The notes beneath the pieces were generated by a model. The model worked only from the letters and a program-made list of their open reading frames with translations, had not been told where the DNA came from and did no database searches. The translations under genes were made by a program, and so were the position numbers. Below are positions 5,127 through 26,183 of a stretch of DNA of 64,000 nucleotides, one piece after another. Source of the stretch: Euryarchaeota archaeon UBA103 (GTDB lineage: Archaea > Thermoplasmatota > Poseidoniia > Poseidoniales > Thalassarchaeaceae). The stretch spans positions 8,346-72,345 of the forward strand of contig DAYH01000030.1 of the NCBI GenBank assembly GCA_002506825.1, given 5' to 3'. Within the stretch, counting starts at the first letter, position 1. Every line of letters starts with the position of its first letter.

Positions 5127-7265
5127 ATGACTGAAACTATGAATTCTGGCAACCGAAGAATTTCCCCCTTGTCATTTCCAGGCTATTTTTCCATTGCATT
5201 GATGATATTACTGGCCCTATCCGTACCTGCAAATGCTCAGGAGTATAGAAGTGGTTGGGACCTCATCAACAGCGGCACGTTACATGACCTTTATTCTGTA
5301 GAGTCTGAAGGGAACGAGGTATGGGCTTTCGGGGAAAATGGCACTATGGTATTGAGTGGAGACGGAGGCCTATCTTGGGAGGTAGGTGAATCTCTCACTT
5401 CTTCTGATCTGACAATATCGGATTCAGGCTTTGGCTCTTTCTTGGCGGCCAGTATGGATGGTACGATTCTAATTAAGTCTGGAAATGAAATGACATGGTC
5501 GGATATATCATTAGATATTGGGGATGAATCGATTTACGGTGCATGCCTAAATGGCGGTAATGAGGCAGTAATCGTTGGCGGGAATGGGTCCATATGGACT
5601 TACGAAATGCAAGTATGGAGCAATCGTTCAGTTTCTGGGGAAGATCTCCTAGACGTATCTTTCTTAGATTCAGAAAGAGGGATTGCTGTCGGTGAACAAG
5701 GAACAATTCTATTCTCTAATGACGGAGGCTCTTCTTGGGACTACAGGGATGCCCCTACTGAAGCTTCGTCATCGAGGATCATAGACATAGAGTTCTTCAG
5801 TGAAATTAGGGCATATGCCATTACTGATGAAGGAGGAGTTCTGAAGTCTTCGAGAGAGATTAACACAGCAGTGGGATTTCTCTGGAATATGCAATATTTT
5901 GAGTCCGAAGGAGGCTCATCTAATCTTGGAGTAAATCTTACATCTATAGAAATTGCAACAACAAATAAATTTCTTCTTTCTGGAAATGATGGTTACCTCT
6001 CAATGAGCAAGGATGGAGGGAATATAGTAACCCGGCAGATGATTCCACTGGGCAACACAACATCATTCTATGACATAACAATGCTAGATGGCTTCAACGG
6101 CATAGCCGTAGGCAGTAATGGCTCCCTACTTTTGACTGAGAGATCCGGGGAGGATGAACAGGTTGGCTTTGAAGTCATGGACTTCTCAGAATTTGGAAAC
6201 TTTGTAGATTACTCAAAGGGGATGCTGATAGATGGTTTGTATGCCACTATTAACATTGTAATGTTTGGAATTTTTCTCGGCTTCTTCCTCGGAATCTCCC
6301 TCTCGATGATGAAGACCTCGCCTACTACTCTCAAAGAAATTTCTCAGAGGAGGAGTTTGGCAGTGATAAAATCTACAGGAGTGATCTTTACTATAATTGG
6401 GGCCTCCTTAGTAAATCATCTAGTTCCTATTATTGCGAATCTTGGATTGGATGGCTGGGAATATATTTATGCTCCGATTGGAATTATTAATCCTGATGGA
6501 ATTACTGGAGAACTACAATTCGAAAACTTCCTATTCCTAATACTTGGAGTGAGCCTTTTCCTTCTGGGAGTACTCTTCATATCAGCGAATGGAGATTATA
6601 AAAAATCTCACTACAACATTAGGGGTAAAGAAATTATTTGGAATCCTTGGGGCATTAGGCCTCTGAATTTCATTGCAACTATCTACACAGATATTTTCAG
6701 AAATACTCCTCTGATTGTCCAATTCTTGTTCATACATTTTGGAGTCCAGATAGGTGCATTGATCGGCGATCCAGGAGCAGAAATGTTGGATGGCTCTAGT
6801 AATTTCATCCTGGCTTTCCTCAGGGACGATATCCTTTCTAACAGGGCCTGTGTTAGTGCGATATTCGCCTTGGGCCTGAACTCAGGCGCCTACCAGTGCG
6901 AGACAATACGTGGAGCCATTTCCGCAATACCCTCTGGGCAGATGGAGGCTGGAAGAAGTATAGGGCTGAATTACATGCAGACAATGAGACTTGTTATTAT
7001 GCCTCAAGCCATTCGAATTTGCATCCCCCCAATGGGTAATGAGATGGTTAATTTAGTCCTAAATTCATCACTTGCAATGGTAATAGGTTATTCCGAGCTT
7101 ACTCGAAAAGCCAAACTGATTAACGCGGTTACTTTTCAGGTATTCTGGTCCTATGGCATGGTTTTAATTTCCTACTTTATTGTTACTTGGACACTGGCTT
7201 TATTCCTGAGGTATCTTGAGAATAAGACTAGAATTCCTGGACTGGGAATATCCGGAGGGAGCTAA
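5127..7265 (+). CDS. Fusion protein: signal peptide, Asp-box (BNR)/Ycf48-like beta-propeller, and polar-amino-acid-type ABC transporter permease (HisM/GlnP family)
   Basis: N-terminal hydrophobic leader [18 protein letters not shown]. Asp-box motifs [18 protein letters not shown] and a degenerate SKDGGNIV in a ~310-aa repeat-rich region. C-terminal half carries the permease signatures [17 protein letters not shown] and the EAA loop [36 protein letters not shown]. Confidence 0.8.
5238..6162 (+). other. Extracytoplasmic Asp-box/BNR beta-propeller domain of the ABC permease fusion
   Basis: Repeated blade-like pattern of G-x-x-G-T/S-I-L/hydrophobic, then S-x-D-G-G-x-S-W. Examples: [60 protein letters not shown]. 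Confidence 0.6.
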
Positions 7266-7266
7266 A

Positions 7267-8007
7267 ATGGACAGTGTTCTAACTATTTCAGATATGCACA
7301 AAACGTATGCTGGAGGAGTTCATGCAGTACGAGGAGTTTCGTTTGAAGTTAATGAGGGCGAGTCAGTAGCCATAATTGGATCATCTGGAAGTGGGAAATC
7401 CACAGTTCTAAGATGCATAAACAGGCTAATTGAGCCAACTGAAGGAGAAGTAAGGCTTCGTGGAGATTTAATTAATACTCCTTCCGCAGATATCAATAAT
7501 GTAAGATCTCGTATTGGGATGGTGTTCCAGTCTTTCGAGCTATTTTCTCATCTTAGGGTCATTGATAATATCACACTTGGACTGAGACATGTCAGAAAAA
7601 TGAGCAAGAAGGACGCGGAGAGTGAAGCTCTTGAAGTTCTGGAGAAGGTTGACATGCTAGACCGAAAAGATGCTTTTCCTGGAAATCTATCCGGAGGACA
7701 GAAACAACGTGTTGCAATTGCTAGAGCACTTGCAATGAAGCCTGAAGTAATGTTGTTTGACGAGCCTACAAGTGCATTGGATCCAGAATTGATTGGTTCA
7801 GTACTGAAAACAATTCGAGGATTGGCAGACGAGGGAATGACAATGATAGTAGTAACACATGAAATCGGCTTTGCTAGAGATGTAGCAGATAGGGTGATTT
7901 ACATGGATAAGGGAATAATTGCAGAATCTGGGAAGTCATCGATTATTGATAATCCAAAGACGGAACGCCTGAAGAGGTTCCTCTCATCTATCAATGAGGA
8001 AGACTAA
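7267..8007 (+). CDS. ABC transporter ATP-binding protein (polar amino acid family, GlnQ/HisP-like)
   Basis: Walker [10 protein letters not shown], signature [15 protein letters not shown], Walker [13 protein letters not shown]-loop VTHE. ATG at 7267, 1 nt after the permease stop; the track start at 7216 overlaps the permease. Confidence 0.9.
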
Positions 8008-10923: not shown

Positions 10924-11292
10924 ATGTCCGGTCACAGTCCAATGGTCTCACTTAGAATTCCGGAAGATCACCTTCTAGAATTAGACAGAATGGTAGGCTT
11001 TGATGGAATGAGAAATCGTTCTGATGTTATTCGGTCAGCGATTAGAAAGTATCTGACTGACGAGTACCAGGTTAGTGGAGAGAAGGTAGAAGTAAATCTA
11101 GGTCCCGATCTAAGTTCCATAATGGATGATTTCTGTAAATTACATGGTGAGAAACCTGACTCAGTTTTGAGGCAGGCGGCTAGAGAACACATTAGAAGTG
11201 TTACAGTTGAAAACAGTAAAGTTACAGATATGATTTCTTCCAGAATGAATGAGCTGAGAGAAAGAAGCAATGACGATTCAAACGCTATATGA
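10924..11292 (+). CDS. Ribbon-helix-helix (CopG/NikR-N-like) transcriptional regulator
   Basis: VSLRIPEDHLLELDRMVGFDGMRNRSDVIRSAIRKYL fits an RHH beta-strand plus two helices. Small (122 aa) and divergent from the HD gene. Confidence 0.65.
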   Translation: MSGHSPMVSLRIPEDHLLELDRMVGFDGMRNRSDVIRSAIRKYLTDEYQVSGEKVEVNLGPDLSSIMDDFCKLHGEKPDSVLRQAAREHIRSVTVENSKVTDMISSRMNELRERSNDDSNAI

Positions 11293-13514: not shown

Positions 13515-13985
13515 ATGGAGTGGACCAGAGTTTCGATAGGAGAGAAAAAAGGCGATGTTCCTCAGATCCCAACACTTCCTGAATCATCAGGGCTTGATAC
13601 TGATGCCTTGTCATCTCATCAAAGATTCATGTCGAGTATTGGCCACATGACTGAAGTAATTGATAATCATGAAAAATCAACAAAAAGAGTATTACTTCCT
13701 GGGGTTGAGGCTTTAGGCGGATTTGACTCCATTAGATCCTTTCAAGACGGAGTTTCCGCGATAGGCGCTGAATCAATTGGTAACGGATTAGAGATTCTAC
13801 TATCAAAATCTATTATGGGCGAAGTACTTCTTCAGAAGATGGCTGTAGAGTCAGGACAGGCCATAAGACTAGTAGTGCCGGAAAAGTTTGGAGGAAACGT
13901 AGAGTCGTTCATGCTCCCCTTTGGGGCGACTGTGGACGAGGCGTTCTGGGATGGAAATAGATTGAAGATAACCTTCAATTACTAA
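13515..13985 (+). CDS. Hypothetical protein (156 aa)
   Basis: ATG-initiated ORF 40 nt after the helicase gene, same strand. No recognisable motifs. Its stop overlaps the stop of the convergent giant gene. Confidence 0.5.
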   Translation: MEWTRVSIGEKKGDVPQIPTLPESSGLDTDALSSHQRFMSSIGHMTEVIDNHEKSTKRVLLPGVEALGGFDSIRSFQDGVSAIGAESIGNGLEILLSKSIMGEVLLQKMAVESGQAIRLVVPEKFGGNVESFMLPFGATVDEAFWDGNRLKITFNY

Positions 13986-16900
13986 TCTTCAATTATTTTT
14001 CCTTTGGACCTTATTGGAACTTCCTCAAGTTGGTCTATTTCTTGTAGTACCGAGTTGAGAGCCATCTGGGCGCTTTCCCTATGTTGATCTCCAAGAACGT
14101 GACTGGAATACCTGGCTTCTTCGAATATTCTATCCAGCGACAGTAATGCCTGTTCACTTATTGGAAGTGCGCTCCTAATTGCCATTTCGAATTCCCTCAC
14201 TGTTTCGAAATCCCTTCTAAGGAACCCTCTACTCATCAATATTTTACAAAGTCCTTCATAACAATTGAAGATCGCTTCCCTAACTTCGTCTCCAGCGGCA
14301 AGAAGTTCTGCAGTGTAGCTAAATACGCCTGCCAATTCATCAATAGCAGCCTTCTTCTTTTTCCTTATGGAGACTACTAATGCTGAAACTCCTATCATGA
14401 ATGCTACCAGAATTATCGATAATATCGCGGGCCTTAGTAGTGAATCCGAAGCCTCGGCCTGATAGTTTATCTCAACTTCACTAAACTGGGCTAATTGAGT
14501 GGCGTTGACTGGATCGATAATGTCGGAGTCAGAGCTGAATTCCATATTCAACTCGCCCCAGAAGTCCCTATCCCAGAATGAGTGCTCTTCATGGAATGAC
14601 TCAAATTGATAGTTGAATATCCCATTTTCATCTGTCATCCCAACTACAGTAAAGAGTGTGTTAGTATCATTAGTTAGTCTGGCAGTTATGGACACGCCCT
14701 CTACTGGAGGGGCCCTATTATCATCTGAAGCGGTAACATTGATTTTTCCAGAAATCTTAGTCTGGCCCCTCTCGATAAAGAGTACATCAGGAATAAATTC
14801 AAAGTCAACACTAACTAGTATCTGCAGATCGAATTCCAGAGAAGCACCATTAAGGAATCTCTCTGCATCGGGATCCACTTCTATGGTAAAGACAGAATTA
14901 CCTGGTGGCATGTACGTTTTTGCATTGGAAGTAATTAGGAACTGACCTGTTGCTTGGTCCCATGTAATGATTGCATTTGGCTCTAACGACCCCTCCCATA
15001 GGAGTGACATTTCCATTTCTTCCATAGTATTTCCATCGCCCCCGATTTCAAGTACCCTGCCTCTGACTGTTATTGGCCTAGTCTCATCGCCTCTAACAAC
15101 CTCGTCCGATATCAGGAGTATTTCCACATTGATATCAGCCCTTGAGAAAACAGTAGTATTTGTCGAGTCAGGGAGATACAGCTCCTCTCCGTAAAAACTG
15201 ACTGATACTAGGTGGGCGCCTCGAGAAATTGAGTATCCTAATTCATGTGTGAACGAAAACGTCCCATCTATTCCTGTAGTCACTACCAAGATCTCGTTAC
15301 CGTCCAATATGAAAGAAATATTCCTATTTTCCAATCCTGGGCTCCCAGAGGTATCAGAATCATAGAGCCTCCCTGAGAAGTTCCACATTCCCCCTCTCGT
15401 TGCTACGCTGTTCTCGACATTTAGGGTAATAGTAGTGTGATATGCGATCGTGAGATTTGTCTCTACTGAAGTCTGTCGATAGTAGCCTTGATCGGGAGAA
15501 ATCACAGTTACTGGATGAACTCCCACATCTAGGAACTCTGAGACGACCCATGAAAGATGCCAACTACCATCCTCCTCAGTCACGGTAGTTCCTATCAATA
15601 TACCATCTACGAATATCTGTAATGAGTGATTTGAAAGCCACCCATCGGGAAGATTATCCCTAACTGTTCCTCTAAGATTTAGTTCATCCCCAACAGCTAT
15701 TGGTTCTGGATCTTCCACAGTCAGCACTGTGGGCGAGAATACAGTGAAGATTGTAGTAGAGTTTGATCCGAGGATGAATTCCTCGCCCTCGAATGATAGT
15801 GTTACCTCCCTCGGCCCGAGAGGCATATCAGAAGGAACGGGGAAGAATAGACTAAATGAGCCATTTGCATCCACATTGAGCGAGGTCAACATCTGCCCAT
15901 TCATGTAAGCATCGAGACTTCTGTTAGGGAGTGGTCTTCCGGCACCATCGGTTAAAATTCCTTCAATTAGTAAGAGTTCGTTTCTGTCTATCTCGCCCTG
16001 AGGAGTAGTTAGAACTACTTGTGAAGTCTGCGTTACGTTGAACGGAGTTGTAGTAATTGACGATAAGTAATATTCCGGGTTCAGTGAGTCTCCTTGACCC
16101 ATGGGGTCGACCCATGTAAAACCGCCTAGGAACTCGATACTGAATGTATGCTGACCATAGTCCATATCCAATGGGAGGTCGTATGTGATTTGCCATGTGC
16201 CAGATGATGAGTTTGAAATATCGATGTACAGGGGTCCGACGTCAATCCCATCTATCGAGAGGTGAACGACCCCACCTTTCGGTGAACCGTCCTCAAGCAA
16301 AGGTAAGCCATGCTCGTCCAGGAGTGTTCCTCTGAATATTACCTGCTCCCCGGCTACAGCAGAACCTGAAATATCTGCCACTTCAATAACAGTCGGGGCC
16401 AGAATAATTATCCTAGTCCAAGTCTGATCGCCAGATAATCCAGTAGTTCCATTTATTCCGTCGAAAACCGCAGTCACGGTCATAGGTCCAGGATTTCTAT
16501 TTGAGTCGGTTGCTAAACTCGTGTTAATGAGGCCGTTTGAATCGGTAAATCCTGACCATGTCTGAAGACCATCAACTAGAATTTTAACTTCTACATTACC
16601 GACATTTTCTCCGGCATTATCCATTATGGAAATATTTAGGTCTGATGGATCCCCTCTGACTGTTCTTGCATTTGGATCCAGATCTGTTGGGTTGATAATC
16701 GATATCATTGAGAATCCCCTGCTATCGAAACTTCCGTTGCTAGAACTTGAGCTGTAATAATTTACAGTCGGTGTGTATGTAGCTGAGATGTTGTGTGTCC
16801 CCCTCGGGAATGACATCTCCAAGAAAATTCTGGCTGACCAACTTCCATTTGGATCGACTGCTCCTCCCGAAACTGAGAATCCCGTAGAGACATTATCGAT

Positions 16901-19900
16901 CAAGAAGGTTAGGCTTGGCGAAAGAGGATTTCCATTTCTATCCACGATACCACTGCCGTTACTTGAGGTTAGATTCCCAGATACGTCCATGAAATCTCCT
17001 GCAGTCGGGTTCGCGGTAATGGGGCTAAATGATATGGAGGTCGGAGATCTGACGATTATGGTATTGATGAATGTGAAAGAAGTATGTAGGGACTCAGTAC
17101 CATTGGAACCATTGAACATCAACATAACTGATATCGCCCCCAGTGGGTGGGAGTGTGGAACATCGAATGAGAAATTTACATATCCCCCAGAATTAGAAGA
17201 AGTCTCCGTTGACATCCATGTATCATGGAATTTCGCGGCCACGCTCATCCCAGATATTTCTCTGTCATTATTTGATGACTCAACAAACTTAGCACCGAAG
17301 GAAATGGAAGAACCTCTGTCTACGATTGTATTTATGAGGGGGACACGATCTATGAATTGAACAACTCCCCTTACTAGTACCGATTCTGAACCGGTCCCGG
17401 TTAGGTAGAATGGACTACTTCCGTTTTCAACGCTGATTACAACTGTCTTGAGGCCATTAGAAATCCCATCTCCCAATGGATCGGTAGGTACGGAAACGGA
17501 AAATGTGCCATTCGGCGAGGTAGCAAAACCAGATATGAGCTTCTCACTAGGATCATTCAGGAAGAAGACTTCTATTGAGACAGGGCCACTAACTGTCCTA
17601 TTGACATCGAAAGAATCCATCACTTTACCTGTCACAAGGAATGACTGACCCGCAGTTACCTCAGGGAGGGGAGAATTATCTATCCTAACGCTACTGGAAA
17701 CCTGGACTGTTAGATTCATGTAGCTCTGGTTGGCAAGCCATCTGCCTGCATCTGGAGTATCCAGAGAGTCTGTCAAGTCGTCCGGAGCTAGAATCAGCAC
17801 GTCATAGTAGCCAGGAGGGGCATCACTAGGAATTAGAGACTGAAATTCAACGACGCCGTCATTTCCAGTGACAGAGATATTCATTAGCTGCTCAAGAGAA
17901 CCCCCCCAATCAAAGTAAATTTCTACAGTGGCGTTAGAGAGTCTCTCGTTACTCTCAAGATCTCTGACTGTAGCTGAAGCAGATAGGTTTTCGCCCGCCA
18001 CCACGATTGCACTGGTATTGGTAGTCTGAACATCGAACATTGTCTGAATCCCTATGTCCAGTGTGTTTTCTATTGCTGGATCGAAGAAGTAAGGGATACC
18101 CCCGGGCGAGTTCTTTACGAAATCAAGGACTAGAACCGCTTGATAGACTCCTGAACCTATTCCACTAGGCATTGAGAATGATATGTTGTATTGTCCGCTG
18201 GTGGTATCCAACCAAGTTGACCCCAAGGTGTATCTATCAGGAGGGAGAGGATTGCCATCTGGCCCAGGAGGTAGACTGGAGGGGACATCTAAGAAGAGTG
18301 AGGCAGAAGTGTTGTTACCCAAAACAGTTGAGTTGAGATCGGAGTCTGTTACTGATCCTGAGATCCAAGTAGTATTGCCCATCGGAACCCACTCGGTACC
18401 GAGATTGAATATCGGAGACGCCCTGCCTTGGATCCTCACTGTATCAGATGTTTGATTGGGACTTATCCAGGTGGAACCGTTGTAACTGAGAACCCAAGGA
18501 TAGTCGCCTGCGAGAGTTAGATTCGAGGGGGCCCAAGAAGTTACTATTTTGGGAACGTCAGGATTGGAATCATTCCATACATCTGTGCCATTCACAGATA
18601 AGGAGAAGAGCCCAGGAAATGAAGTAATTTCTGCCCCAGTGTGGTCGGATAGTGAGACTAAGATATCTGTAGTAGAGCCCTTTGGAGAGGGGGCCATTGT
18701 ATAGTTGAAAACAATGTAGCTCTTGATACCGTGTTGATCGACTACGGTAGTTTCATCTTTAGCGAAAAGCTGATCTGCCAGATATTGGTATCTAATCTCA
18801 ACAAGTCCTGCAGGAATGGGGACTTCGGAATCTAGGAACGTCCAATTGACAGCGAATTGCCCAGGGCTTGATAGCCAGTCACTGTCGTTTAGATACCAAG
18901 AGTTCAGAGTTTGGAAGGGAGCATTTGTACCGGATCTCCTCATTTGCAATGTAAGGGTCCCATTCAGAGACTCTGGGACTTCAGATTTACTGAGGGCAGT
19001 ACCGTTGAGATATATTGGCCTATTAATCTCCAGTAGAGTATCGTTTAATCCCTGTCCTTCCAGTGAAATCGTCAGATTAGGAGCCTGTGTCAAATTGAGA
19101 TTGATGGTTTCCGAAGATGGCCTGATATGGAATACAGGACCCGATGCATTGTTTAGATCGTATTGATGCCAGCCGGTGTAATCAAGTGTTGCCGATATCA
19201 GGCCCTCTTGCTCGCTTTCATTAATTAATACTGAGAACTCAAAATATCCCCCGGGGCCGATACTAGATATCAGGCTGACAGGGCCATCTTGTGAAGTGGT
19301 ATAATTCATCAGAACCTGCATACTGTCAATCAGTGAAATATCATTATATGGATTATTCTCCAGAGAAACTGAGCCAGTAATCGTAGTGTTTACGCCTATT
19401 CCTAATTTTGGCTCAGTGACTGGTTGGGGTTCGCTTAAAGACAGGGTGATGTCATCGGTGATATTCACGTTCCAGTCTGAGAAAATACCTTGATAACCAA
19501 CGTAACCGAGTGACTTGGTCATAACGACTAATGACGCGTTTCCTGGATTGACAGCTTCAGAAGGCATCCCCGTGATGTTAAAAGAGCCATTAGAGTCAGT
19601 CACGGCAGTACCCACAAGATGTTGAGAAACGGCCGCCAAACCGGGTATTTGATCTGTCATATTTGATTCAATCAGATACATTTCAACACCAACCCCTTCC
19701 ACTGATGTCTGATTATCTGTAAATCGTAGAGTGCCATTCATCCATATCGATTGTCCGGATAAATCTCTATCCAACCACAATGGGCCCCAAGACTCATTTG
19801 TAACCTCGACAAGAGACATTGCAGGACAGGCCTCGAATGGAATCCATCCCAAATCTGCGTTTCCAAGATTTTGGTTAGTTTGTAAGTGAACCTCTACCCA

Positions 19901-22900
19901 TGAAGAGAAGTCTTTTCCGTAAACCTCGAATGCTTCTCCGTTCCAGTACCCTCCAGAAAATCCTGTTACCTTCCTCACGGGGATATCCACCATCCTAAGC
20001 ATTACAGCAAAGAGAGAGGTGAATTGATCACAGCTTCCTTCGAATGAGTTATTTAACATCCAAAATGATAAATCAGACTCAAGACCAGAGCTTAGCGGAG
20101 TGGTACCGTTGTTATTCCTGAGGAATGTGTATGTATCATTACCGTTAATTAAGAAATCTTGAATCGCAGTGACTTTATCCCATGCAGTTAACGCGCCTGA
20201 TTCATTTATGACAGACTGGGAAGTACTTGAAACTAAATCGCGTACTCCCCTCGCGAAGAAATCAGGAGGATCGGTCGCGTAGTCGGTTCCCGTAAATGCA
20301 GTAGAGTTGTCCCTAACTGCCTGAGTGATATTTACTTGCGGAGTGGTGATAAACATTGTATCGATTGAAGAACCATCTACAATTATGTCCCTTGTGAAGT
20401 TAGAAAAATTCAATCCTGCAGTTGGATCGGTCCAACCTGTGAAATTAACTGTATTATGAGGAAGAATAAGCTCATCCCCGACATCAGCCACTCCTGGCCC
20501 CCTGTAACTTATCTCCCATCCCATTAGGGTTGAATTATCCCAGAATTGCTGATCGGAGACTCCTTGTGTGGTCGAGAAACCGGGAGCCATTTCGGTATTG
20601 CCTACAAGAGAGGTATTAACGCCCCATGATATTCCCGTGTATTTGTCGTACGTGTGCCATCTCCAGTAGATTGTATTCTCAGGATCTAGAATAGACGATT
20701 GATTAGTGGCATAGAGATACATGGAGTTAGGAGAAATGTCATCTGATGGGTCCCAAGGGTTGTTTGGGGAGTCTTCGCACTGCCCGTCCCAGTAGTCGGA
20801 AGTACACTCTTGACCGTCGGGAATACCTCCTCCGTCAGTATCAGGATCTCTCCAATCGGTCCCTGTTGAGTTTTCGATTGTATCGGGTATTCCATCTCCA
20901 TCCGTATCGACGGGGTTTCTGTCATCATTGGGGTTGTCCTGGGGATTAGTTCCGTCAATATACTCTTGGAAATCTGTGACTCCTCCGTTATCGGTATCTG
21001 ATAAATTCCACAGAGTGAAATAGGTATCGTTAGTGAAATTGCCCCCTAGCCCTGGAAATAAAACTATACAGCCTGTCGTATTTTCAAAGTAATTATTCAA
21101 TCCATCTCCATCTGAGTCAAGAAAGTTTTCACATGGATCAAGTGGATTGGTGCCATTCAGAATCTCATCTAAATCATCCACTCCGTCAGAGTCGGTATCT
21201 ATCAGATTTGGATTGGTGGGAAATCCCCATGTAGAAAGATACTCTTCCCAATCCGCAAGCCCATCACCGTCTGAGTCAGAGTAGTCATCATCACAAACTG
21301 GATCGTTGACAGCTCCCACGGTAGCGTTCCAGCACCAAGAGAAATTAGTGAAGAGAACAGTGGAGGTATTGGCTGGCAAATCTACATTGACGCTTCTCAG
21401 TACATCCGAATCTATGCTTTCGTACCTGAACTCCACGAGAGTTCCATTTGACTGGACGTAGTATGCCATAGGGGCATCTGTCTGTCTCCAATCGATCGGT
21501 GATTGATCTAAATCCGAGGTTGTGTTGAGCGTCAAGGATGATGTTACGGCATCCCATGCTACTATCTGGAGTGTTAGCTCCTGTCCCGATAAGCAAGGAT
21601 CCGTATTGTGGAAAGGCAGATTTTCGTCTCCATCAGATACCCCTCCTCCGTCTGTATCGAAAACGTTCCATAGAGTACATGTCATATTCTCTTCCCAATT
21701 CTGAATACCGTCTCCGTCGAAGTCTCCTGCATCCTCTATCCTAGTTGGATCGGTTTCATTCATGTCCACTATTCCGTTGCCATTGAGGTCTTCTTCACCA
21801 TCATCGAATTGATCTCCATCGGTGTTGTTACTTCTTGGATCGCTAGCTTGAGGCGGGTCTCCATATTGGCCATTTACCTCGACTCCGTCATCAATACCAT
21901 CAGAGTCCGTATCGGGAGAAGTGGGGTCCGTGAGAAGTATCAAGGCCTCGTATGAATCATTGAGTCCGTCTCCATCTGTGTCGTTTGACTGCGGGTCTGT
22001 AGATGTGATGCCATCTACTTCTGCTGTTAGAAATTGGCATCCCCCGGGGCCCAAGGACAATACGGGATTGCAAGGCGATTCGGTAGCAGTCATAGCAAGT
22101 GGCCCTGGCCTAAAATACTGTGTAGGCGGAGTCGTGGAGCCATTTCTAGTGCCCCATGCTGGATTGACATACTCCTTCAGATTGATCAGTCCATCACCGT
22201 CTGGATCTCCAAAAGTACCGTCCATATTGCTGTTTGATGTCGGATCTAATCCATTTGCGGCCTCCCACCCATCTGGCATACCATCACCATCGGTATCCCA
22301 TCCATCTGGGTCCTCGTCTGATACTCCATCGCCATCATCATCATCGCTGGAGCAGTTTGCATCACCATCCCCGTCCCCATCGAAGTTATCCACCATTCCG
22401 TCTTTGTCGTCGTCGAATGTGTTGAAGCAGATATTTCCCCTGGGGTCCTCGTCGGCGCCATCAGAATTCAACCCCTGAATGAGTTGCATGGCACTTTCCT
22501 CGTCCCAATCTCTGACAGGCACGGTACCATTCCACCAAACTCCATTGTCTAGTACATTGGGAGTTAACGGCGAATCCCAGCCATTGGGGATGGAATACTG
22601 ATACTCATTGAGGTTAGTGAAAGCATCTCCATCTGGATCTCCAGTAGAGCCATTATCTCCGTTTTGAGACAGGGGATTCAATCCGTACTGCCATTCCCAT
22701 CCATCTGGAAGTCCATCGTTATCTGAGTCCCAGTCTTGCGGCTGTGTGTTGATGTAGAATTCTAAGCCGTAGGATAGTCCGTCTCCATCTTGATCGGATG
22801 AAGCTAGGGCCTCCCATGCACTGAACTCCAATGCTGAATAAGAAGACAAAAGCATCAGCAAGGAGAATACGAACGCGGAACGTTGTTTTCTGGTTCTCAT

Positions 22901-22933
22901 CGCATCTTTTGAAAGAATCACGATAGAGCCCAT
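13982..22933 (-). CDS. Giant (~2,983-2,986 aa) type-I membrane surface protein: signal peptide, TSP type-3-like Ca-binding repeats, transglutaminase-like core, long array of Ig/CarboxypepD_reg-like repeats, TM and DUF4129-like cytoplasmic domain
   Basis: Single uninterrupted 8.96-kb ORF. The track start at 22942 is GTG. The ATG at 22933 is preceded by GAGGTGA with 5-nt spacing. Leader RTRKQRSAFVFSLLMLLSSYSALEFSA. Domain motifs are listed in the sub-features below. Confidence 0.85.
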   Translation of the reverse strand: MGSIVILSKDAMRTRKQRSAFVFSLLMLLSSYSALEFSAWEALASSDQDGDGLSYGLEFYINTQPQDWDSDNDGLPDGWEWQYGLNPLSQNGDNGSTGDPDGDAFTNLNEYQYSIPNGWDSPLTPNVLDNGVWWNGTVPVRDWDEESAMQLIQGLNSDGADEDPRGNICFNTFDDDKDGMVDNFDGDGDGDANCSSDDDDGDGVSDEDPDGWDTDGDGMPDGWEAANGLDPTSNSNMDGTFGDPDGDGLINLKEYVNPAWGTRNGSTTPPTQYFRPGPLAMTATESPCNPVLSLGPGGCQFLTAEVDGITSTDPQSNDTDGDGLNDSYEALILLTDPTSPDTDSDGIDDGVEVNGQYGDPPQASDPRSNNTDGDQFDDGEEDLNGNGIVDMNETDPTRIEDAGDFDGDGIQNWEENMTCTLWNVFDTDGGGVSDGDENLPFHNTDPCLSGQELTLQIVAWDAVTSSLTLNTTSDLDQSPIDWRQTDAPMAYYVQSNGTLVEFRYESIDSDVLRSVNVDLPANTSTVLFTNFSWCWNATVGAVNDPVCDDDYSDSDGDGLADWEEYLSTWGFPTNPNLIDTDSDGVDDLDEILNGTNPLDPCENFLDSDGDGLNNYFENTTGCIVLFPGLGGNFTNDTYFTLWNLSDTDNGGVTDFQEYIDGTNPQDNPNDDRNPVDTDGDGIPDTIENSTGTDWRDPDTDGGGIPDGQECTSDYWDGQCEDSPNNPWDPSDDISPNSMYLYATNQSSILDPENTIYWRWHTYDKYTGISWGVNTSLVGNTEMAPGFSTTQGVSDQQFWDNSTLMGWEISYRGPGVADVGDELILPHNTVNFTGWTDPTAGLNFSNFTRDIIVDGSSIDTMFITTPQVNITQAVRDNSTAFTGTDYATDPPDFFARGVRDLVSSTSQSVINESGALTAWDKVTAIQDFLINGNDTYTFLRNNNGTTPLSSGLESDLSFWMLNNSFEGSCDQFTSLFAVMLRMVDIPVRKVTGFSGGYWNGEAFEVYGKDFSSWVEVHLQTNQNLGNADLGWIPFEACPAMSLVEVTNESWGPLWLDRDLSGQSIWMNGTLRFTDNQTSVEGVGVEMYLIESNMTDQIPGLAAVSQHLVGTAVTDSNGSFNITGMPSEAVNPGNASLVVMTKSLGYVGYQGIFSDWNVNITDDITLSLSEPQPVTEPKLGIGVNTTITGSVSLENNPYNDISLIDSMQVLMNYTTSQDGPVSLISSIGPGGYFEFSVLINESEQEGLISATLDYTGWHQYDLNNASGPVFHIRPSSETINLNLTQAPNLTISLEGQGLNDTLLEINRPIYLNGTALSKSEVPESLNGTLTLQMRRSGTNAPFQTLNSWYLNDSDWLSSPGQFAVNWTFLDSEVPIPAGLVEIRYQYLADQLFAKDETTVVDQHGIKSYIVFNYTMAPSPKGSTTDILVSLSDHTGAEITSFPGLFSLSVNGTDVWNDSNPDVPKIVTSWAPSNLTLAGDYPWVLSYNGSTWISPNQTSDTVRIQGRASPIFNLGTEWVPMGNTTWISGSVTDSDLNSTVLGNNTSASLFLDVPSSLPPGPDGNPLPPDRYTLGSTWLDTTSGQYNISFSMPSGIGSGVYQAVLVLDFVKNSPGGIPYFFDPAIENTLDIGIQTMFDVQTTNTSAIVVAGENLSASATVRDLESNERLSNATVEIYFDWGGSLEQLMNISVTGNDGVVEFQSLIPSDAPPGYYDVLILAPDDLTDSLDTPDAGRWLANQSYMNLTVQVSSSVRIDNSPLPEVTAGQSFLVTGKVMDSFDVNRTVSGPVSIEVFFLNDPSEKLISGFATSPNGTFSVSVPTDPLGDGISNGLKTVVISVENGSSPFYLTGTGSESVLVRGVVQFIDRVPLINTIVDRGSSISFGAKFVESSNNDREISGMSVAAKFHDTWMSTETSSNSGGYVNFSFDVPHSHPLGAISVMLMFNGSNGTESLHTSFTFINTIIVRSPTSISFSPITANPTAGDFMDVSGNLTSSNGSGIVDRNGNPLSPSLTFLIDNVSTGFSVSGGAVDPNGSWSARIFLEMSFPRGTHNISATYTPTVNYYSSSSSNGSFDSRGFSMISIINPTDLDPNARTVRGDPSDLNISIMDNAGENVGNVEVKILVDGLQTWSGFTDSNGLINTSLATDSNRNPGPMTVTAVFDGINGTTGLSGDQTWTRIIILAPTVIEVADISGSAVAGEQVIFRGTLLDEHGLPLLEDGSPKGGVVHLSIDGIDVGPLYIDISNSSSGTWQITYDLPLDMDYGQHTFSIEFLGGFTWVDPMGQGDSLNPEYYLSSITTTPFNVTQTSQVVLTTPQGEIDRNELLLIEGILTDGAGRPLPNRSLDAYMNGQMLTSLNVDANGSFSLFFPVPSDMPLGPREVTLSFEGEEFILGSNSTTIFTVFSPTVLTVEDPEPIAVGDELNLRGTVRDNLPDGWLSNHSLQIFVDGILIGTTVTEEDGSWHLSWVVSEFLDVGVHPVTVISPDQGYYRQTSVETNLTIAYHTTITLNVENSVATRGGMWNFSGRLYDSDTSGSPGLENRNISFILDGNEILVVTTGIDGTFSFTHELGYSISRGAHLVSVSFYGEELYLPDSTNTTVFSRADINVEILLISDEVVRGDETRPITVRGRVLEIGGDGNTMEEMEMSLLWEGSLEPNAIITWDQATGQFLITSNAKTYMPPGNSVFTIEVDPDAERFLNGASLEFDLQILVSVDFEFIPDVLFIERGQTKISGKINVTASDDNRAPPVEGVSITARLTNDTNTLFTVVGMTDENGIFNYQFESFHEEHSFWDRDFWGELNMEFSSDSDIIDPVNATQLAQFSEVEINYQAEASDSLLRPAILSIILVAFMIGVSALVVSIRKKKKAAIDELAGVFSYTAELLAAGDEVREAIFNCYEGLCKILMSRGFLRRDFETVREFEMAIRSALPISEQALLSLDRIFEEARYSSHVLGDQHRESAQMALNSVLQEIDQLEEVPIRSKGKIIED
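13985..14430 (-). other. C-terminal TM helix, poly-Lys stop-transfer and ~115-aa cytoplasmic DUF4129-like helical domain of the giant protein
   Basis: ILSIILVAFMIGVSALVVSIRKKKK, then ...EAIFNCYEGLCKILMSRGFLRRDFETVREFEMAIRSALP...LDRIFEEARYSSH. This resembles the DUF4129 pattern Y..l...l...G.....ETp.Ey...l.......l..l...yE.ArYs (from memory). Confidence 0.45.
14610..19610 (-). repeat. Array of at least 11 divergent ~100-aa beta-sandwich (Ig-like/CarboxypepD_reg-like) repeats, rich in N-x-S/T sequons
   Basis: Recurring [TS]-D-x-N/D-G-x-F/W ... P ... G-x-h-x-V motif: TDSNGSFNITGMP, TGNDGVVEFQSLIP, SPNGTFSVSVP, VDPNGSWSARIFL, TDSNGLINTSL, SSSGTWQITYDLP, VDANGSFSLFFPVP, TEEDGSWHLSW, TGIDGTFSFTHEL, TDENGIFNYQF. 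The repeats diverge at the DNA level. Confidence 0.65.
19800..20160 (-). other. Transglutaminase-like (papain-fold) core domain
   Basis: EGSCDQFTSLFAVMLRMVDIPVRKVTGFSGG ... FSSWVEVHL ... LGWIPFEACP matches the TGase-core template G-x-C-x-x-F-A...R..GIPAR.V.G ... HAW.EV ... GW..fD. The Cys codon is at 20030-20032 (residue 971 counted from 22942). Confidence 0.65.
20745..22795 (-). repeat. Array of thrombospondin type-3-like calcium-binding repeats (protein level)
   Basis: At least 15 D-x-D-x-D-G-x-x-D-x-x-E units by eye, including DSDNDGLPDGWE, DTDGDGMPDGWE, DPDGDGLINLKE, DTDGDGLNDSYE, DTDSDGIDDGVE, DFDGDGIQNWEE, DSDGDGLADWEE, DTDSDGVDDLDE, DSDGDGLNNYFE, DTDGDGIPDTIE and DTDGGGIPDGQE. Confidence 0.75.
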
Positions 22934-23010
22934 GCTACTCACCTCTACCTAGGGCGGAAAGTAGGGCTCTTAAGAGGAATGGAGCGTCGTTCGGACACTG
23001 CCTCATTCTA

Positions 23011-25974
23011 TTAGACGAGTTCAATGTCGTCATCACCATACACATCTTCCTCATCTTCCTCTTCCTCTTCCAAGGAAACCACTGGTGCAGGTATGTCATC
23101 TATGTCTTCTGAATCTTCTTCGGAGGCATCAGAAATAGCATCTAAGTATGCCATATGTGACCTCCACCTTCGGCGATTCAAGGCCGATTGTGTTCCGGCT
23201 ATTAGTAACATGACAGCTATGATTCCAACGACATAAGTTGACAGTCTAGGATGAGTGAACTCATTCACTAGACGTTCCAAGAGAGAATCGATTCCAATCG
23301 TCATTATGACCGTTGCCTTAGCAGTAGAATCGTCAGGCCAACTTTGATCCGTATCGAAGGGAGTAGCAGTAACCATTATGCTTGAAGAGTCGCCATTATT
23401 GGAGGACTCTGGAACAGTGACCTCTAGGACGAATGTGACCTCATCAAATGCTTCCAAAACCACCAGTACCGAACCAGAGGGGCCATCAATCTCAACATTC
23501 CATGAAGAAGAGTCCGATTCGGCTTCAAGGAGAATGGTAAGTGGACTGTTTCCTAGGTTCTTCACCTTCATCTGAATCTCTACCGTGTCCCCGGGAGAGA
23601 GGAGCCTGTTGGGCGAAACCTGTACAATCTCAAGTGAAGGTTCATCAGAGTCTATTTCGAATACCATCGGAAGATCGAAATATCTAGGATCTTCATCCGG
23701 AGTATCCTCTACTACTCGTAAGTAGACTGTATGATTTCCAAACTCAACTTGACTGGTCAGGGTGATAGTAACAAAAACCTCGGTTTCATCACCAGGAGCT
23801 AACGAAACCCTGGGAACGGCATTTCCTGAGTCGTCCTCAATTCTGAACTGCCATTGCCCGTAGGCCGCGTTACGATCGGTATTCTCCTCCAGAGATGCTG
23901 GATTCTGAATTCTCCACCATGTGGCCGACTCTCCCGATGTCATTGTGTTGGTGATCTTGGCCCTCAAGGCGACTTCAGCATTTCCCGAACCGGGTGAACA
24001 AAGAGAAACTGTGATATAGCCAAGTGGGGAACCATCGCAGTCATAGGAAACCTCTGCCCTAATGCCAAATGTCCTCTGAATTGTGAATTCGATAGTAGAA
24101 GATAGATTACTCTGGCCGGTACTTACGACCTCCAATTCAACAGTACCTATGTCAGGATCTAGCCTATCCGACGATGGTTTTACTAAAATCCTGAGAGTCT
24201 GTGTCTGATGCCTATCGAGAAGGGAGGTATGAAAAGTTCCGTCTCCATCATCCTCTAGAATCCTCTCTCCAGTGTCATTATCATATACCTGGATAATGGC
24301 CTTGGCCCTCTGGAGAACGTCAATCTTAAATTCGTCTGCATCAAAACCAGTATTGAATATCTCCATAAGAAAAGGCGTGAACTGGTCGTAGTCAACATAG
24401 CTGTTAGCGGAAGCATCAAAGTCGTCTGGTCTTGAAGAATTGGCAACTGCTATTTCATGATCTTCAGACCATATTGAAACTTGAGGAGGCTGGAACACAT
24501 CCATCTTCTTGAGGTCTATCTGTAGCGTGTCCTGATGAACAACCTGTAAGACCCCATCAACCTCTGCCTCTGCTACAGCCCTGATGTCAATGGAACTGGG
24601 AGCACCTGTAAGATCCTCAGGCGCGGTCAATGTGAGAATGGGATTGAGTATGTCCCCACCAGAGTTTAGAGTATAGCCTCCTGGCGAGTCGAACTCTATC
24701 AACCATGAGCTGGGGAAATTTGTCAGTACTTCAAGCTCTACATCCATAGATTTGGTCGAATCGCCCCTATGTACCATCTGAAGAGGGACTGGTGTGGTCT
24801 GCTCAGGGGCGATATACTCTGTTGACCTGTCTTGCCTATGATTCAGTGCCACTCCCCACTGTTCCATATTTACCGGTTCGTGCTCAACTATCACACTGTT
24901 ACCCTGTATATCTGAAACTTCGAGCTCTACCGTATATTCACCAGAGGGTATGCCGCTGGGATACGACCAAAGATACTCTCCGAAGATACCTTGGCTGGTA
25001 TCCTCAATATCTTCATCGTCCTCGTCAATGACATGATCAATTCTGTAGATCCCGTTTGGATCCCTCATAAGTAGTCTAACTGAGTCGACGTCGTACCTTC
25101 CGAAGCTACTTTTCACATCGAACGAGAATTGCATTACCCTTTCTGACAGGATATCATTAGGATACCAATCAAGTTCGGCACCCTCAGCCAGTTCCGCACC
25201 CTCTCTTTGCAATAAAACCAAGCTATTGGCAATCGCATTAGCCTCAATTTCCAAAGTACTGAATCTCTCATCGCCATCTATTTCGTTCCACGCGACCTCG
25301 GCCTCACAGCTAGAAGAGCCCCCCCACGGGCTTCCTCCTCCGCTATCGCAACCAGACATATCAGCATCGATGATTAATTCCAAGCGTTCATCTTTGTCTA
25401 TAGTGAATGTCTCGTCGCCTCCGATATCGATTTCAAAAGTTTCATGATCGAAACTACAACTTTGGGTGAGGCCTGGGTTACAGGCTTCTGATGACCAAGA
25501 CGCTGATCCGACCTGTGATCCTGATGCTTTGAGGGTGAGTGTCCAGTCAACTGTGGCAGTATCGGGACCCGTGGACCTCAGAAATATCCCAATTGGGAGA
25601 TAGTATGAGCCAGATCCTGATCCATGGTTAGGCCTACCAGCAACCTCGAGGCTGGAAAGCATTGGACTGGTCTTGAATTCAATACTGCTACTTAGAGCGC
25701 TCATGGACTCCTGTCCACCGGATTCGGGAACTTGTGTAGTGATGAATCCATCTCCGCCTGCAGAGGAATTTTGGGATGCGATATACATTGTGTAAAGATT
25801 CATTTGAACGTCGGATGAGACGCCATAATTGGTAGTCTCAGATAGCTCACTATTGGAAACAGTAGATGCCGCATAGGGAATAAGGAGCACTAGGCATAGG
25901 GCCAGTGCTATCGCCTTACTCCTAAGAGCGTAGTTCGCTATACTCCTCCCTTGCACGGTTAAGCGCCCATACAA
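23011..25974 (-). CDS. Large (987 aa) type-I membrane surface protein with CARDB/NEW3-like beta-sandwich domains and an acidic cytoplasmic tail. Immediately upstream of, and co-oriented with, the giant gene.
   Basis: N-terminal leader RSKAIALALCLVLLIPYAAS. MKVKNLGNSPLTILLEAESDSSSWNVEIDGP and FPSSWLIEFDSPGG resemble CARDB/NEW3 strands. TM VVGIIAVMLLIAGTQSAL, then RRRWR and a D/E-rich tail (EEEEEDEEDVYGDDDIELV). The start is ambiguous: TTG at 25974 or GTG at 25956. Confidence 0.75.
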   Translation of the reverse strand: MYGRLTVQGRSIANYALRSKAIALALCLVLLIPYAASTVSNSELSETTNYGVSSDVQMNLYTMYIASQNSSAGGDGFITTQVPESGGQESMSALSSSIEFKTSPMLSSLEVAGRPNHGSGSGSYYLPIGIFLRSTGPDTATVDWTLTLKASGSQVGSASWSSEACNPGLTQSCSFDHETFEIDIGGDETFTIDKDERLELIIDADMSGCDSGGGSPWGGSSSCEAEVAWNEIDGDERFSTLEIEANAIANSLVLLQREGAELAEGAELDWYPNDILSERVMQFSFDVKSSFGRYDVDSVRLLMRDPNGIYRIDHVIDEDDEDIEDTSQGIFGEYLWSYPSGIPSGEYTVELEVSDIQGNSVIVEHEPVNMEQWGVALNHRQDRSTEYIAPEQTTPVPLQMVHRGDSTKSMDVELEVLTNFPSSWLIEFDSPGGYTLNSGGDILNPILTLTAPEDLTGAPSSIDIRAVAEAEVDGVLQVVHQDTLQIDLKKMDVFQPPQVSIWSEDHEIAVANSSRPDDFDASANSYVDYDQFTPFLMEIFNTGFDADEFKIDVLQRAKAIIQVYDNDTGERILEDDGDGTFHTSLLDRHQTQTLRILVKPSSDRLDPDIGTVELEVVSTGQSNLSSTIEFTIQRTFGIRAEVSYDCDGSPLGYITVSLCSPGSGNAEVALRAKITNTMTSGESATWWRIQNPASLEENTDRNAAYGQWQFRIEDDSGNAVPRVSLAPGDETEVFVTITLTSQVEFGNHTVYLRVVEDTPDEDPRYFDLPMVFEIDSDEPSLEIVQVSPNRLLSPGDTVEIQMKVKNLGNSPLTILLEAESDSSSWNVEIDGPSGSVLVVLEAFDEVTFVLEVTVPESSNNGDSSSIMVTATPFDTDQSWPDDSTAKATVIMTIGIDSLLERLVNEFTHPRLSTYVVGIIAVMLLIAGTQSALNRRRWRSHMAYLDAISDASEEDSEDIDDIPAPVVSLEEEEEDEEDVYGDDDIELV

Positions 25975-26097
25975 GTGGCGTTAAAGCGTTCGTGCGACTT
26001 GGGCAACTGATACGTCAATTGTGAGGGTAGATAATATGGCCCAAATATAGACTTCGGGGCGCTCGATTCAAGGAGTATGACCCCCTCCTAGTGTCCA

Positions 26098-26183
26098 GCA
26101 GAGGTACCCGAGCTGGTCAAAGGGGCCGGACTTAAGCTCCGGTGCGTAGTGCTTCGCAGGTTCAAATCCTGCCCTCTGCACCA
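26098..26183 (+). tRNA. tRNA-Leu (anticodon UAA), genomically encoded CCA
   Basis: Acceptor GCAGAGG/CCTCTGC. Anticodon stem CCGGA/TCCGG with loop CU-UAA-GC. Long variable arm (class II tRNA). T-arm GCAGG-TTCAAAT-CCTGC. Discriminator A, then CCA. Confidence 0.85.

Follow-up and report, generated by a model that had tools for sequence, protein, structure and literature searches.

In Pfam architectures the transglutaminase-like membrane proteins of the TgpA type end in a DUF4129 domain. TgpA (PA2873) of Pseudomonas aeruginosa possesses a Cys-His-Asp triad, is enzymatically active and has been reported to be essential, and a sixth transmembrane (TM) helix is predicted after its periplasmic domain (PMC3507681). 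A second described system is the bifidobacterial PFNA cluster (pkb2-fn3-MoxR-duf58-tgm), in which a transglutaminase-like membrane protein, proposed to signal, is conserved with an FN3 membrane or surface glycoprotein, and which comprises a kinase, a MoxR ATPase and DUF58 and is subject to episodic positive selection of a species-specific kind (PMC8430577). The present analysis concerns two adjacent genes of Euryarchaeota archaeon UBA103 (Thalassarchaeaceae; Poseidoniales), which are located on contig DAYH01000030.1 (assembly GCA_002506825.1) in a stretch of 64,000 nucleotides (positions 8,346 to 72,345, forward strand), referred to as the window in the following. One of them is predicted to encode a multi-domain surface protein of almost 3,000 amino acids (the giant), the other a smaller membrane protein (the partner).

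Archaeal S-layer glycoproteins, such as csg of Haloferax volcanii and SlaA/SlaB of the Sulfolobales, the latter encoded by two adjacent genes, combine a signal peptide, immunoglobulin (Ig)-like arrays and a C-terminal anchor with dense N-glycosylation and cation dependence. The erythrocyte protein 4.2, a eukaryotic and cytoplasmic protein, is an inactive pseudo-transglutaminase that has lost the Cys. As had been suspected in an earlier note made from the DNA sequence alone, no described system matches the archaeal pair: the literature searched contains no description of it, nothing that joins Marine Group II (MGII) with a transglutaminase or with thrombospondin transcripts or that names an MGII S-layer, and only a passing mention of “thrombospondin genes” in Poseidoniales. 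Databases name the giant “transglutaminase domain-containing” or “hypothetical”. We hold with moderate confidence that the pair represents a constitutive, lineage-defining structural module in the envelope of Poseidoniales (Marine Group II) cells, for which we infer a structural role, abundance and a physical interaction of both proteins.

Both genes are encoded on the minus strand, their longest open reading frames (ORFs) spanning 23011..25974 and 13982..22942, which agrees with the earlier description in orientation, size, spacing, ribosome binding site and adjoining tRNA gene. The giant ORF comprises 8,961 nt or 14% of the window, and the distance from the partner to the giant measures 68 nt if the latter starts at GTG 22942 and 77 nt if it starts at ATG 22933. 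The features of the locus are:

23011..25956, minus strand: partner gene, 981 aa if started at GTG 25956 and 987 aa in its longest ORF (from TTG 25974)
13982..22933, minus strand: giant gene, 2,983 aa if started at ATG 22933 and 2,986 aa in its longest ORF (from GTG 22942)
22939..22945, minus strand: Shine-Dalgarno-like GAGGTGA, 5 nt 5' of ATG 22933, read off the sequence
26098..26183, plus strand: tRNA-Leu(UAA) gene detected by ARAGORN, a member of the conserved synteny and no insertion-site marker

The true start of the giant is probably ATG 22933; GGTG/GGGT-type motifs were found in relatives at the position equivalent to its GAGGTGA. Since the partner orthologues are 977-981 aa long, the partner probably starts at GTG 25956, giving 981 aa. 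Residue numbers of the giant are counted from GTG 22942 throughout. Genes for aRF1, the XPD helicase and a class-I LysRS identify the window as archaeal, its other genes are assigned to housekeeping metabolism, and the GC content over 14-26 kb (0.44-0.48) lies inside the range of the window (0.41-0.50).

More than 1,800 database relatives of the giant were found, and lengths and identities were taken from the top 119 cluster representatives, all of which are full-length (2,935-3,017 aa, median 2,982) at identities ranging from 91% down to 40%; their named sources are Thalassarchaeaceae, Poseidoniaceae or “MGII”. Among the species-representative genomes at least 573 giant matches were confirmed. 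We examined 81 loci, ten of which are on contigs starting inside the giant; in the 71 loci with upstream sequence the partner is located directly upstream on the same strand without exception (71/71), and the Poseidoniaceae partner is homologous to that of the window from end to end (31% identity, E 7e-140). According to a profile search against 1.84 billion representative proteins the full-length partner family is small (~13 clusters, 953-988 aa), the named clusters originating from Poseidoniales or Thermoplasmatota metagenome-assembled genomes (MAGs). Every full-length partner locus examined adjoins a giant, and the most divergent one checked (L202) keeps the same synteny. The earlier proposal that the two genes form a genuine unit is thus supported by a co-occurrence of 100%. 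A further homologue search with the partner profile gave no identity below 58% among the matches listed. Two weak partner-like matches, P0423 (beside a β-helix giant) and P0442 (no giant nearby), were assigned to different systems.

The pair is furthermore embedded in a shared neighbourhood: in both families it is flanked by lipoyl synthase (LipA) and SDR genes at one end and by a small ORF and XPD at the opposite end, FolB joining the LipA/SDR flank in Thalassarchaeaceae. The tRNA-Leu(UAA) gene was found at the equivalent position in 15 of the 15 loci tested, covering both families, and is therefore regarded as part of an ancestral block rather than as the marker of an insertion site. Compared with locus L018 the giant shares an identity of 92% and the partner of 95%, vs 88% for XPD, 89% for LipA and 85% for SDR; compared with locus L001 the giant (40%) and XPD (39%) were similarly conserved. 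The ratios of non-synonymous to synonymous substitutions (dN/dS, Nei-Gojobori) were 0.032-0.036 for the giant and 0.012-0.016 for the partner, vs 0.044-0.071 for XPD, LipA and SDR; they were calculated with the two closest genomes, dS being saturated for more distant ones, and even here dS values are 1-2, which is near saturation, so that the ratios are approximate, but dN alone ranks the genes alike.

The pair is thus a core, syntenic and strongly constrained block in both families of the Poseidoniales and not a variable island. It had been suggested before that the genes belong to a strain-variable surface island beside a tRNA gene, and the adjoining tRNA-Leu gene fits such an island; this suggestion is contradicted by the ancient synteny shared between the families, the conserved position of the tRNA gene, the fixed length of the giant, its lack of internal repeats, a GC content typical of the window and a purifying selection stronger than that on the housekeeping neighbours, and the variable island was rejected on the basis of synteny and selection. 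Taken together, a strain-variable island at the tRNA-Leu gene or an alpha-2-macroglobulin (A2M)-like protease trap is hardly credible as an explanation of the locus.

Several observations were made in the direct neighbourhood of the pair. A 156-aa ORF without Pfam match (13515-13985, plus strand) is convergent with the giant, whose stop codon it overlaps by 4 nt. Many loci of Thalassarchaeaceae carry this ORF in synteny between giant and XPD, and a counterpart of similar size and weak similarity (E 0.008) occupies this position in Poseidoniaceae; the ORF evolves fast (dN/dS about 0.16). In the Poseidoniaceae loci L001 (4709-6928) and L003 (4416-6839) an additional gene predicted to encode a surface protein of 739-807 aa with PKD, He_PIG and YHYH domains lies between the tRNA-Leu gene and the partner; it is absent from that position in the window and in the Thalassarchaeaceae loci and could represent a third component or a lineage-specific insertion. 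The contig PBAZ01000027.1 (L028), labelled “Chloroflexota bacterium”, carries the complete MGII block LipA-SDR-FolB-partner-giant-XPD at identities of 57-68% and is most likely mis-binned.

The architecture and topology claimed previously for the giant, a TSP3 array followed by a transglutaminase core, Ig-like repeats, a TM helix and a cytoplasmic helical domain, were reproduced with Pfam and NCBIfam:

20723..22801, minus strand: TSP3-type Ca-binding repeat array, residues 48-740, with TSP3_bac in five stretches and six invariant Cys pairs
19763..20722, minus strand: TgpA-like domain (β subdomain and transglutaminase core), residues 741-1060, from PF01841, AlphaFold2 (AF2) model and Foldseek
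14453..19762, minus strand: ~16 mutually diverged Ig/macroglobulin (MG)-like β-sandwiches, residues 1061-2830, without Cys and with 63 N-X-S/T sequons
13985..14428, minus strand: TM helix (residues 2839-2857), RKKKK and cytoplasmic DUF4129 helical domain (residues 2860-2986), from hydropathy (2.86) and Pfam

The TSP3 array reaches a borderline score with TSP3_bac (PF18884; 24.6 bits for the whole protein vs a cut-off of 25). It contains 13 strict DxDxDGxxD motifs and 22% Asp and Glu, the D/G positions being invariant throughout the family, and is predicted to bind Ca2+. With a majority identity of 0.76-0.82 over residues 101-400 it is the best-conserved extracellular segment of the protein. 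Partial NCBIfam matches to CglD (79 bits) and MtsD (63 bits) stay far below the respective cut-offs of 400 and 800 bits.

In the sandwich region Big_3_5 was detected above threshold, accompanied by weaker matches to MG2, MG4, Big_1 and CarboxypepD_reg and by GxPGS. The number of about 16 sandwiches follows from the length of the region (1,770 aa) at ~110 aa per modelled sandwich, the first two sandwiches having been modelled by AF2, so that the earlier count of at least 11 was conservative. No internal repeats were found in the giant by BLAST at E <= 1e-3. The faint similarities to MG domains (weak Pfam matches to MG2, MG4 and bMG3, and Foldseek matches of both proteins to A2M and complement) are the features which would fit a protease trap of the A2M type. 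However, the CxEQ thioester motif is absent from the giant according to a motif search, an α-helical thioester domain gave no Pfam match and the modelled stretch after the transglutaminase core is all-β, no bait region is present, and the Foldseek TM-scores of the partner (about 0.1) correspond to a generic β-sandwich similarity.

The giant contains 96 N-X-S/T sequons in total (z about 10; 3.2 per 100 aa), 63 of which are located in the sandwich region, where 23.6 +/- 3.9 are expected from composition-preserving shuffles, and none in the cytoplasmic domain. A comparable enrichment was found across the family (2.4-3.5 per 100 aa, z about 9-11), and 18 sites are kept in at least 15 of 17 diverse giants; the conserved sequons include N138, N372, N419, N533, N635, N1077, N1160, N1300, N1313, N1738, N1944 and N1995. 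From these numbers a dense N-glycosylation is predicted for the ectodomain. Its 14 Cys residues form seven consecutive invariant pairs, the last being C971/C1039, and none of them is located in the 1,770-aa sandwich region.

At the C-terminus DUF4129 (PF13559) was identified with 30.1 bits (cut-off 24.8) over profile positions 1-68 of 69, passing the threshold when the C-terminal 172 aa of the giant were scanned alone. The stretch RRDFETVREFEMAIR in this TM/DUF4129 part is nearly wholly invariant. The only other hydrophobic segment of the giant is an N-terminal signal-like stretch, and DUF3488 (PF11992) gave no Pfam match, so that the polytopic N-terminal module was not encountered.

An alternative reading of this domain order is that of a dedicated adhesin, with a Ca2+-dependent stalk, a TSP3/TgpA-like head binding particles, algal surfaces or cells, and the partner as co-receptor or assembly factor. 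Giant adhesins typically possess near-identical tandem repeats, a variable length and a patchy distribution, whereas the giant described here lacks repeats, is of fixed length, occurs universally across the order and is under stronger selection than its housekeeping neighbours; a tandem-repeat adhesin was rejected on the basis of the BLAST result. The overall plan of a membrane-anchored stalk with a distal head would nevertheless suit an adhesin, as would the TSP3 matches to CglD and MtsD (named in NCBIfam as gliding-motility lipoprotein and cell-cell cohesion protein, respectively), the Foldseek match of the Ig part to the “large adhesion protein” extender 6xi3, and the widespread thrombospondin genes which Rinke et al. 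count as evidence for adhesion in Poseidoniales (PMC6461757). Most Poseidoniales genera have been recovered from the size fraction of free-living cells and only some from particle fractions (Rinke et al., PMC6461757), yet orthologues of the giant are present across both families, and the adhesin leaves the conserved cytoplasmic domain unexplained. Taking both sides into account, we consider this alternative somewhat unlikely.

The transglutaminase core (Transglut_core, PF01841) was recognised at residues 922-1038 with 41.2 bits (cut-off 23, E 2e-10), and a profile search against solved structures revealed the periplasmic domain of P. aeruginosa TgpA (6g49) as the sole sequence relative (E 7e-7). 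As proposed before, a structure was predicted and searched with Foldseek, and the TgpA fold was recovered: the AF2 model of residues 730-1330 (pLDDT 86, pTM 0.77) has TgpA 6g49 as its best match (E 6e-11, target-normalised TM 0.60-0.62), followed by animal transglutaminases (TG2, FXIII) and the inactive scaffold protein 4.2 (7tvz_E). The sandwiches trailing the core matched MG domains of complement and A2M as well as the S-layer protein of Haloferax (7ptp, E 2e-7).

In the pairwise alignment the TgpA motif DAHAWVEY corresponds to DFSSWVEV in the giant. The position of the catalytic His (1013) is occupied by S, T, Q, A or N in 17 of the 17 members analysed, which cover both families, and no invariant His is present anywhere in residues 741-1060 of these members; H1019 is an Arg in Poseidoniaceae. 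The Asp position 1037 after the “GW” strand, which was placed by motif and not by structural superposition, varies between E, D, Q, H and N. C971 (codon 20030-20032), in contrast, is invariant (17/17) and aligns with the Cys in SGFCAHYA of TgpA. C1039, located two residues past the Asp position, is invariant as well and probably forms a disulfide with C971. Since TgpA possesses the full active triad and the catalytic His is missing family-wide in the giant, canonical cross-linking or proteolysis appears unlikely, and the earlier suggestion of a cross-linking or proteolysis of exogenous protein is not supported.

The invariance of C971 also bears on the possibility that the giant is a non-canonical enzyme or a signalling or assembly device of the TgpA type, in which C971 would act with an unconventional base, or the ectodomain would sense a ligand, and DUF4129 would transmit to a machinery in the cytoplasm, for example a MoxR-type ATPase whose gene lies elsewhere in the genome. 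The closest solved relative is an active and reportedly essential transglutaminase (PMC3507681), the TM and DUF4129 module is common to the TgpA family and is the most conserved globular part of the giant, and the transglutaminase-like protein of the bifidobacterial PFNA cluster has been proposed to signal (PMC8430577). However, the catalytic position carries no His, the domain contains no invariant His and the Asp position varies; for C971 an invariant residue is available as potential disulfide partner, and all other Cys of the ectodomain are paired. A stalk of 1,770 residues and about 96 sequons are moreover hard to explain for a membrane-proximal enzyme. The absence of MoxR and DUF58 noted earlier was confirmed: neither was found among the 44 ORFs of the window that were scanned, including every ORF of at least 290 aa not nested in a larger gene, nor among the genes called up to 10 kb away in L001-L003 and L202, which are distant loci. 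An enzymatic or signalling device is thus regarded as improbable.

The partner had been described as a CARDB/NEW3-like type-I membrane protein with an acidic tail, which is in accordance with our results. It consists of an N-terminal hydrophobic signal, an all-β ectodomain with three Cys pairs, a TM helix and an acidic cytoplasmic tail with 39% Asp and Glu, for which the following features were assigned:

23389..23598, minus strand: NEW3/CARDB-like β-sandwich, partner residues 793-862, the only part that Pfam recognises
23014..23244, minus strand: TM helix (partner residues 911-932), NRRRW stop-transfer and acidic tail ending DDDIELV, from hydropathy and composition

NEW3 (PF10633) reaches 23.9 bits (cut-off 24.4) and CARDB matches weakly; precomputed PF10633 matches exist for many orthologues. 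The AF2 model, built on an alignment of database proteins of at least 58% identity, is all-β with ~7-8 sandwich domains at modest confidence (pLDDT 61.5). By sequence the partner gave no match among solved structures, and Foldseek returned generic MG/Ig arrays only at a TM-score of about 0.1, which does not permit the transfer of a function. In all lineages examined the tail is acidic and terminates with a motif of the type D-D-[IV]-E-L-[VLI], the residues E969, E985 and L986 being invariant. A conserved juxtamembrane NExTHPRxST was additionally detected ahead of the TM helix and NRRRW cluster (23179-23262, minus strand, residues ~904-932).

The partner contains only five sequons, and a density of 0.5-0.7 per 100 aa, at or below expectation, was found among 120 orthologues. 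This asymmetry between the two proteins suggests that the giant is exposed and coated with glycans, and that the partner is shielded or membrane-proximal. One orthologue bears the PGAP name “PEP-CTERM sorting domain-containing protein”; a PEP-CTERM/archaeosortase sorting was not adopted for the partner, since the window protein gave no NCBIfam match and a long conserved tail is present after the TM helix. A 1,122-aa protein with NEW3-like sandwiches encoded elsewhere in the window (102-3470) was likewise rejected as a paralogue of the partner (E 0.06).

The upstream regions of both genes contain conserved promoter-like elements:

25980..25992, minus strand: CGAACGCTTTAAC, BRE/TATA-like element of the partner, conserved in both families; GTG 25956 lies 23 nt downstream
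22965..22996, minus strand: GTCCGAACGACGCTCCATTCCTCTTAAGAGCC, ultra-conserved ~32-nt element upstream of the giant, comprising a TATA-like TTAAG and a putative specific upstream binding site

The GAAC...TTTAA of the partner element occurs once in the window, and the geometry between CGAACGCTTTAAC and the GTG is consistent with a leaderless transcript of the partner. The GTCCGAACGACGCTCCATTCCTCTTAAGAGCC element was found in one copy per locus in 70 of the 70 loci with upstream sequence and without inserted gene, in both families. When metagenomes were scanned for the ~32-nt motif, 119 contigs were identified, with the partner upstream in 118 of 118 and the giant downstream in 111 of 112 cases, and the element is therefore considered to be specific to this site. 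TTAAG or TTAAT is located 35-40 nt before the start codon of the giant, a spacing that would suit a TATA box of the archaeal type at about -26, followed by a short leader with a Shine-Dalgarno sequence. The element was also considered as an RNA, which was rejected: it matches no Rfam family above noise and its fold z-score of -0.77 indicates no unusual folding. Its near-invariance leaves no covariation to draw on. We thus prefer to regard it as a candidate DNA-level promoter or binding site.

In two species (L068, 8280-9677, and the equivalent region in L078) a gene predicted to encode a Zc3h12a-like NYN RNase of 465 aa with a long Lys/Ser-rich tail separates the partner from the giant. Past this inserted gene, directly upstream of the giant, the ~32-nt element is present in a diverged copy. 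A gene for a ribbon-helix-helix (CopG-type) protein (10924-11292, plus strand), which belongs to the neighbourhood conserved in both families, is a candidate regulator acting on the element.

Each gene has its own conserved promoter-like element; a co-transcription is not required, the short gap alone lends it no support, and read-through is possible. The co-transcription that the earlier note deduced from the short gap is thus called into question by a promoter-like element between the genes in every lineage and by the inserted gene in two species. A promoter or terminator separating the transcripts, named there as evidence against the unit, was found in part: the promoter-like element is present throughout, whereas a hairpin just past the stop codon of the partner occurs only in some lineages, namely in Poseidoniaceae loci and in L080. 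A scan for sigma-70 promoters and intrinsic terminators gave match counts equal to the shuffle expectation and is uninformative for an archaeon.

Among the roles offered earlier, envelope scaffolding is the one favoured by the evidence. In the arrangement that we propose the giant would be secreted by its N-terminal signal and anchored through its single C-terminal TM helix, and outward from the membrane a stalk of ~16 sandwiches would be followed by the non-catalytic TgpA-like domain and by a TSP3 array of ~700 residues, presumably rigidified by Ca2+ and six disulfides. The DUF4129 domain would couple the giant to a cytoplasmic factor. The sequon-poor partner may sit membrane-proximal beside the stalk, its acidic ...DDIELV tail being a candidate docking peptide for the DUF4129 domain or for the same cytoplasmic factor. 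Both proteins would thereby act as a surface scaffold, an S-layer-like or glycocalyx element, and not as an enzyme, possibly serving also as a contact surface for particles or viruses. Each gene would be under its own promoter, that of the giant with a dedicated ultra-conserved regulatory site.

Several points weigh against the proposed scaffold. The rank of a major envelope component is one that we infer, and it is the co-occurrence of the two genes that suggests a physical interaction of their products. Archaeal S-layer proteins usually diverge fast; the pair evolves more slowly than the adjacent housekeeping genes, and for an outermost layer exposed to viruses this would be unusual. The invariance of C971 could reflect a retained chemical role rather than a disulfide, the near-invariant cytoplasmic domain fits a role in signalling or assembly at least as well as passive anchoring, and an Ig stalk of fixed length with a Ca-binding head is also adhesin-like.

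In ocean surface waters the Poseidoniales (Marine Group II) have been described as the most abundant planktonic archaea, and they are without a cultured representative (PMC6461757); the literature searched offers no published account of their cell covering, of virus-bound structures or of particle contact. With the present analysis an anonymous pair of “transglutaminase domain-containing” and “hypothetical” proteins becomes a defined unit that is kept order-wide and is extremely constrained. The distal TSP3 array, which is ~80% conserved, represents a realistic order-wide target for antibodies or affinity capture, cell sorting, labelling in cryo-electron tomography (cryo-ET) and virus-receptor tests. 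The pair would furthermore exemplify how a transglutaminase fold can serve again, without catalysis, as a module of a surface protein in archaea, and with it the TgpA/DUF4129 family, which is poorly understood, reaches into a context that lacks MoxR and DUF58. The ~32-nt promoter-proximal element, conserved order-wide, provides a rare entry point to the regulation of transcription in an uncultured lineage. It is possible, if doubtful, that the pair even forms the principal surface lattice of Marine Group II, equivalent to an S-layer, built from a TgpA-derived pseudo-transglutaminase giant and the partner, tied to the cytoplasm via DUF4129 and the partner tail and switched by a dedicated transcription-factor site that is nearly unchanged throughout the order; in this case it would constitute a previously unrecognised type of archaeal envelope architecture and would for the first time give molecular access to the cell surface of those uncultured archaea that are most abundant in the surface ocean.

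Further genes of the window and of an unrelated contig may be mentioned. The 1,122-aa protein (102-3470, plus strand) considered above is of the surface type; it contains Ig_VWA7/NEW3-like sandwiches and 13 sequons, and its C-terminal region is charged. On the unrelated contig L201 (2033-12625) a weak partner-like NEW3/Ig_VWA7 protein of 874 aa is encoded immediately downstream of a 2,604-aa β-helix giant (NosD-type), an arrangement which hints at a recurring pairing of NEW3 membrane proteins with giant surface proteins. In the region 5127-8007 (plus strand) an unusual 712-aa fusion of a BNR/Ycf48-like β-propeller (PF14870) to an ABC permease domain (BPD_transp_1) is followed by an ABC ATPase gene (7216-8007). 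An M28 peptidase (36048-37790, plus strand) carries an N-terminal SAP domain (PF02037, E 3e-11), which is odd for a peptidase. A flotillin/SPFH gene is located at 61434-62918 (minus strand); flotillin and “thrombospondin” genes have been described as widespread markers of surface and adhesion in Poseidoniales (Rinke et al. 2018, PMC6461757).

The pair may be compared with several known systems. The TSP3 repeats of the giant are of the bacterial Ca-binding type found in CglD and MtsD of Myxococcus, but only these repeats match, at scores far below the family cut-offs, and the remaining architecture is unrelated. With A2M and complement it shares strings of MG-like sandwiches, seen as faint Pfam matches to MG2, MG4 and bMG3 and by Foldseek in both proteins; unlike them the giant lacks the thioester motif and domain, the MG matches in Pfam are below threshold and the TM-scores of the partner are about 0.1. 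Similar to the archaeal S-layer glycoproteins the giant possesses a signal peptide, an Ig-like array, a C-terminal membrane anchor and an enrichment in sequons, and its fold matches csg (7ptp), but it has no detectable sequence homology to them, is far larger and differs in its head of transglutaminase fold and TSP3 repeats, its folded cytoplasmic domain and its slow evolution. Protein 4.2 offers an analogy of principle only, namely a transglutaminase fold serving as a non-catalytic structural part, with the difference that the giant keeps the Cys and loses the His.

The PFNA cluster is a looser parallel, since the archaeal locus also couples a β-sandwich partner with a transglutaminase-like protein; however, no kinase, MoxR or DUF58 genes are located near the pair, which is under very strong purifying selection, and the partner showed no sequence relationship to FN3 proteins, Pfam giving NEW3/CARDB only. 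TgpA is the closest system, sharing with the giant an extracytoplasmic domain of transglutaminase fold with a conserved position of the Cys nucleophile and a C-terminal TM helix followed by a cytoplasmic DUF4129 domain. Unlike TgpA the giant lacks the catalytic His in all 17 members, has a signal peptide and a 700-aa TSP3 array in place of the polytopic DUF3488 N-terminus, and carries 1,770 aa of β-sandwiches between the core and the TM helix; in contrast to operons of the TgpA type the archaeal pair has a different, lineage-specific partner gene in place of MoxR and DUF58 neighbours, and in contrast to the bacterial family the giant is archaeal and comprises ~2,400 residues of new ectodomain. 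The pair may therefore be described as a variant of the TgpA/DUF4129 family of transglutaminase-like membrane proteins, in which the catalytic His, DUF3488 and the MoxR/DUF58 context are not kept, but the fold and the TM-DUF4129 module are.

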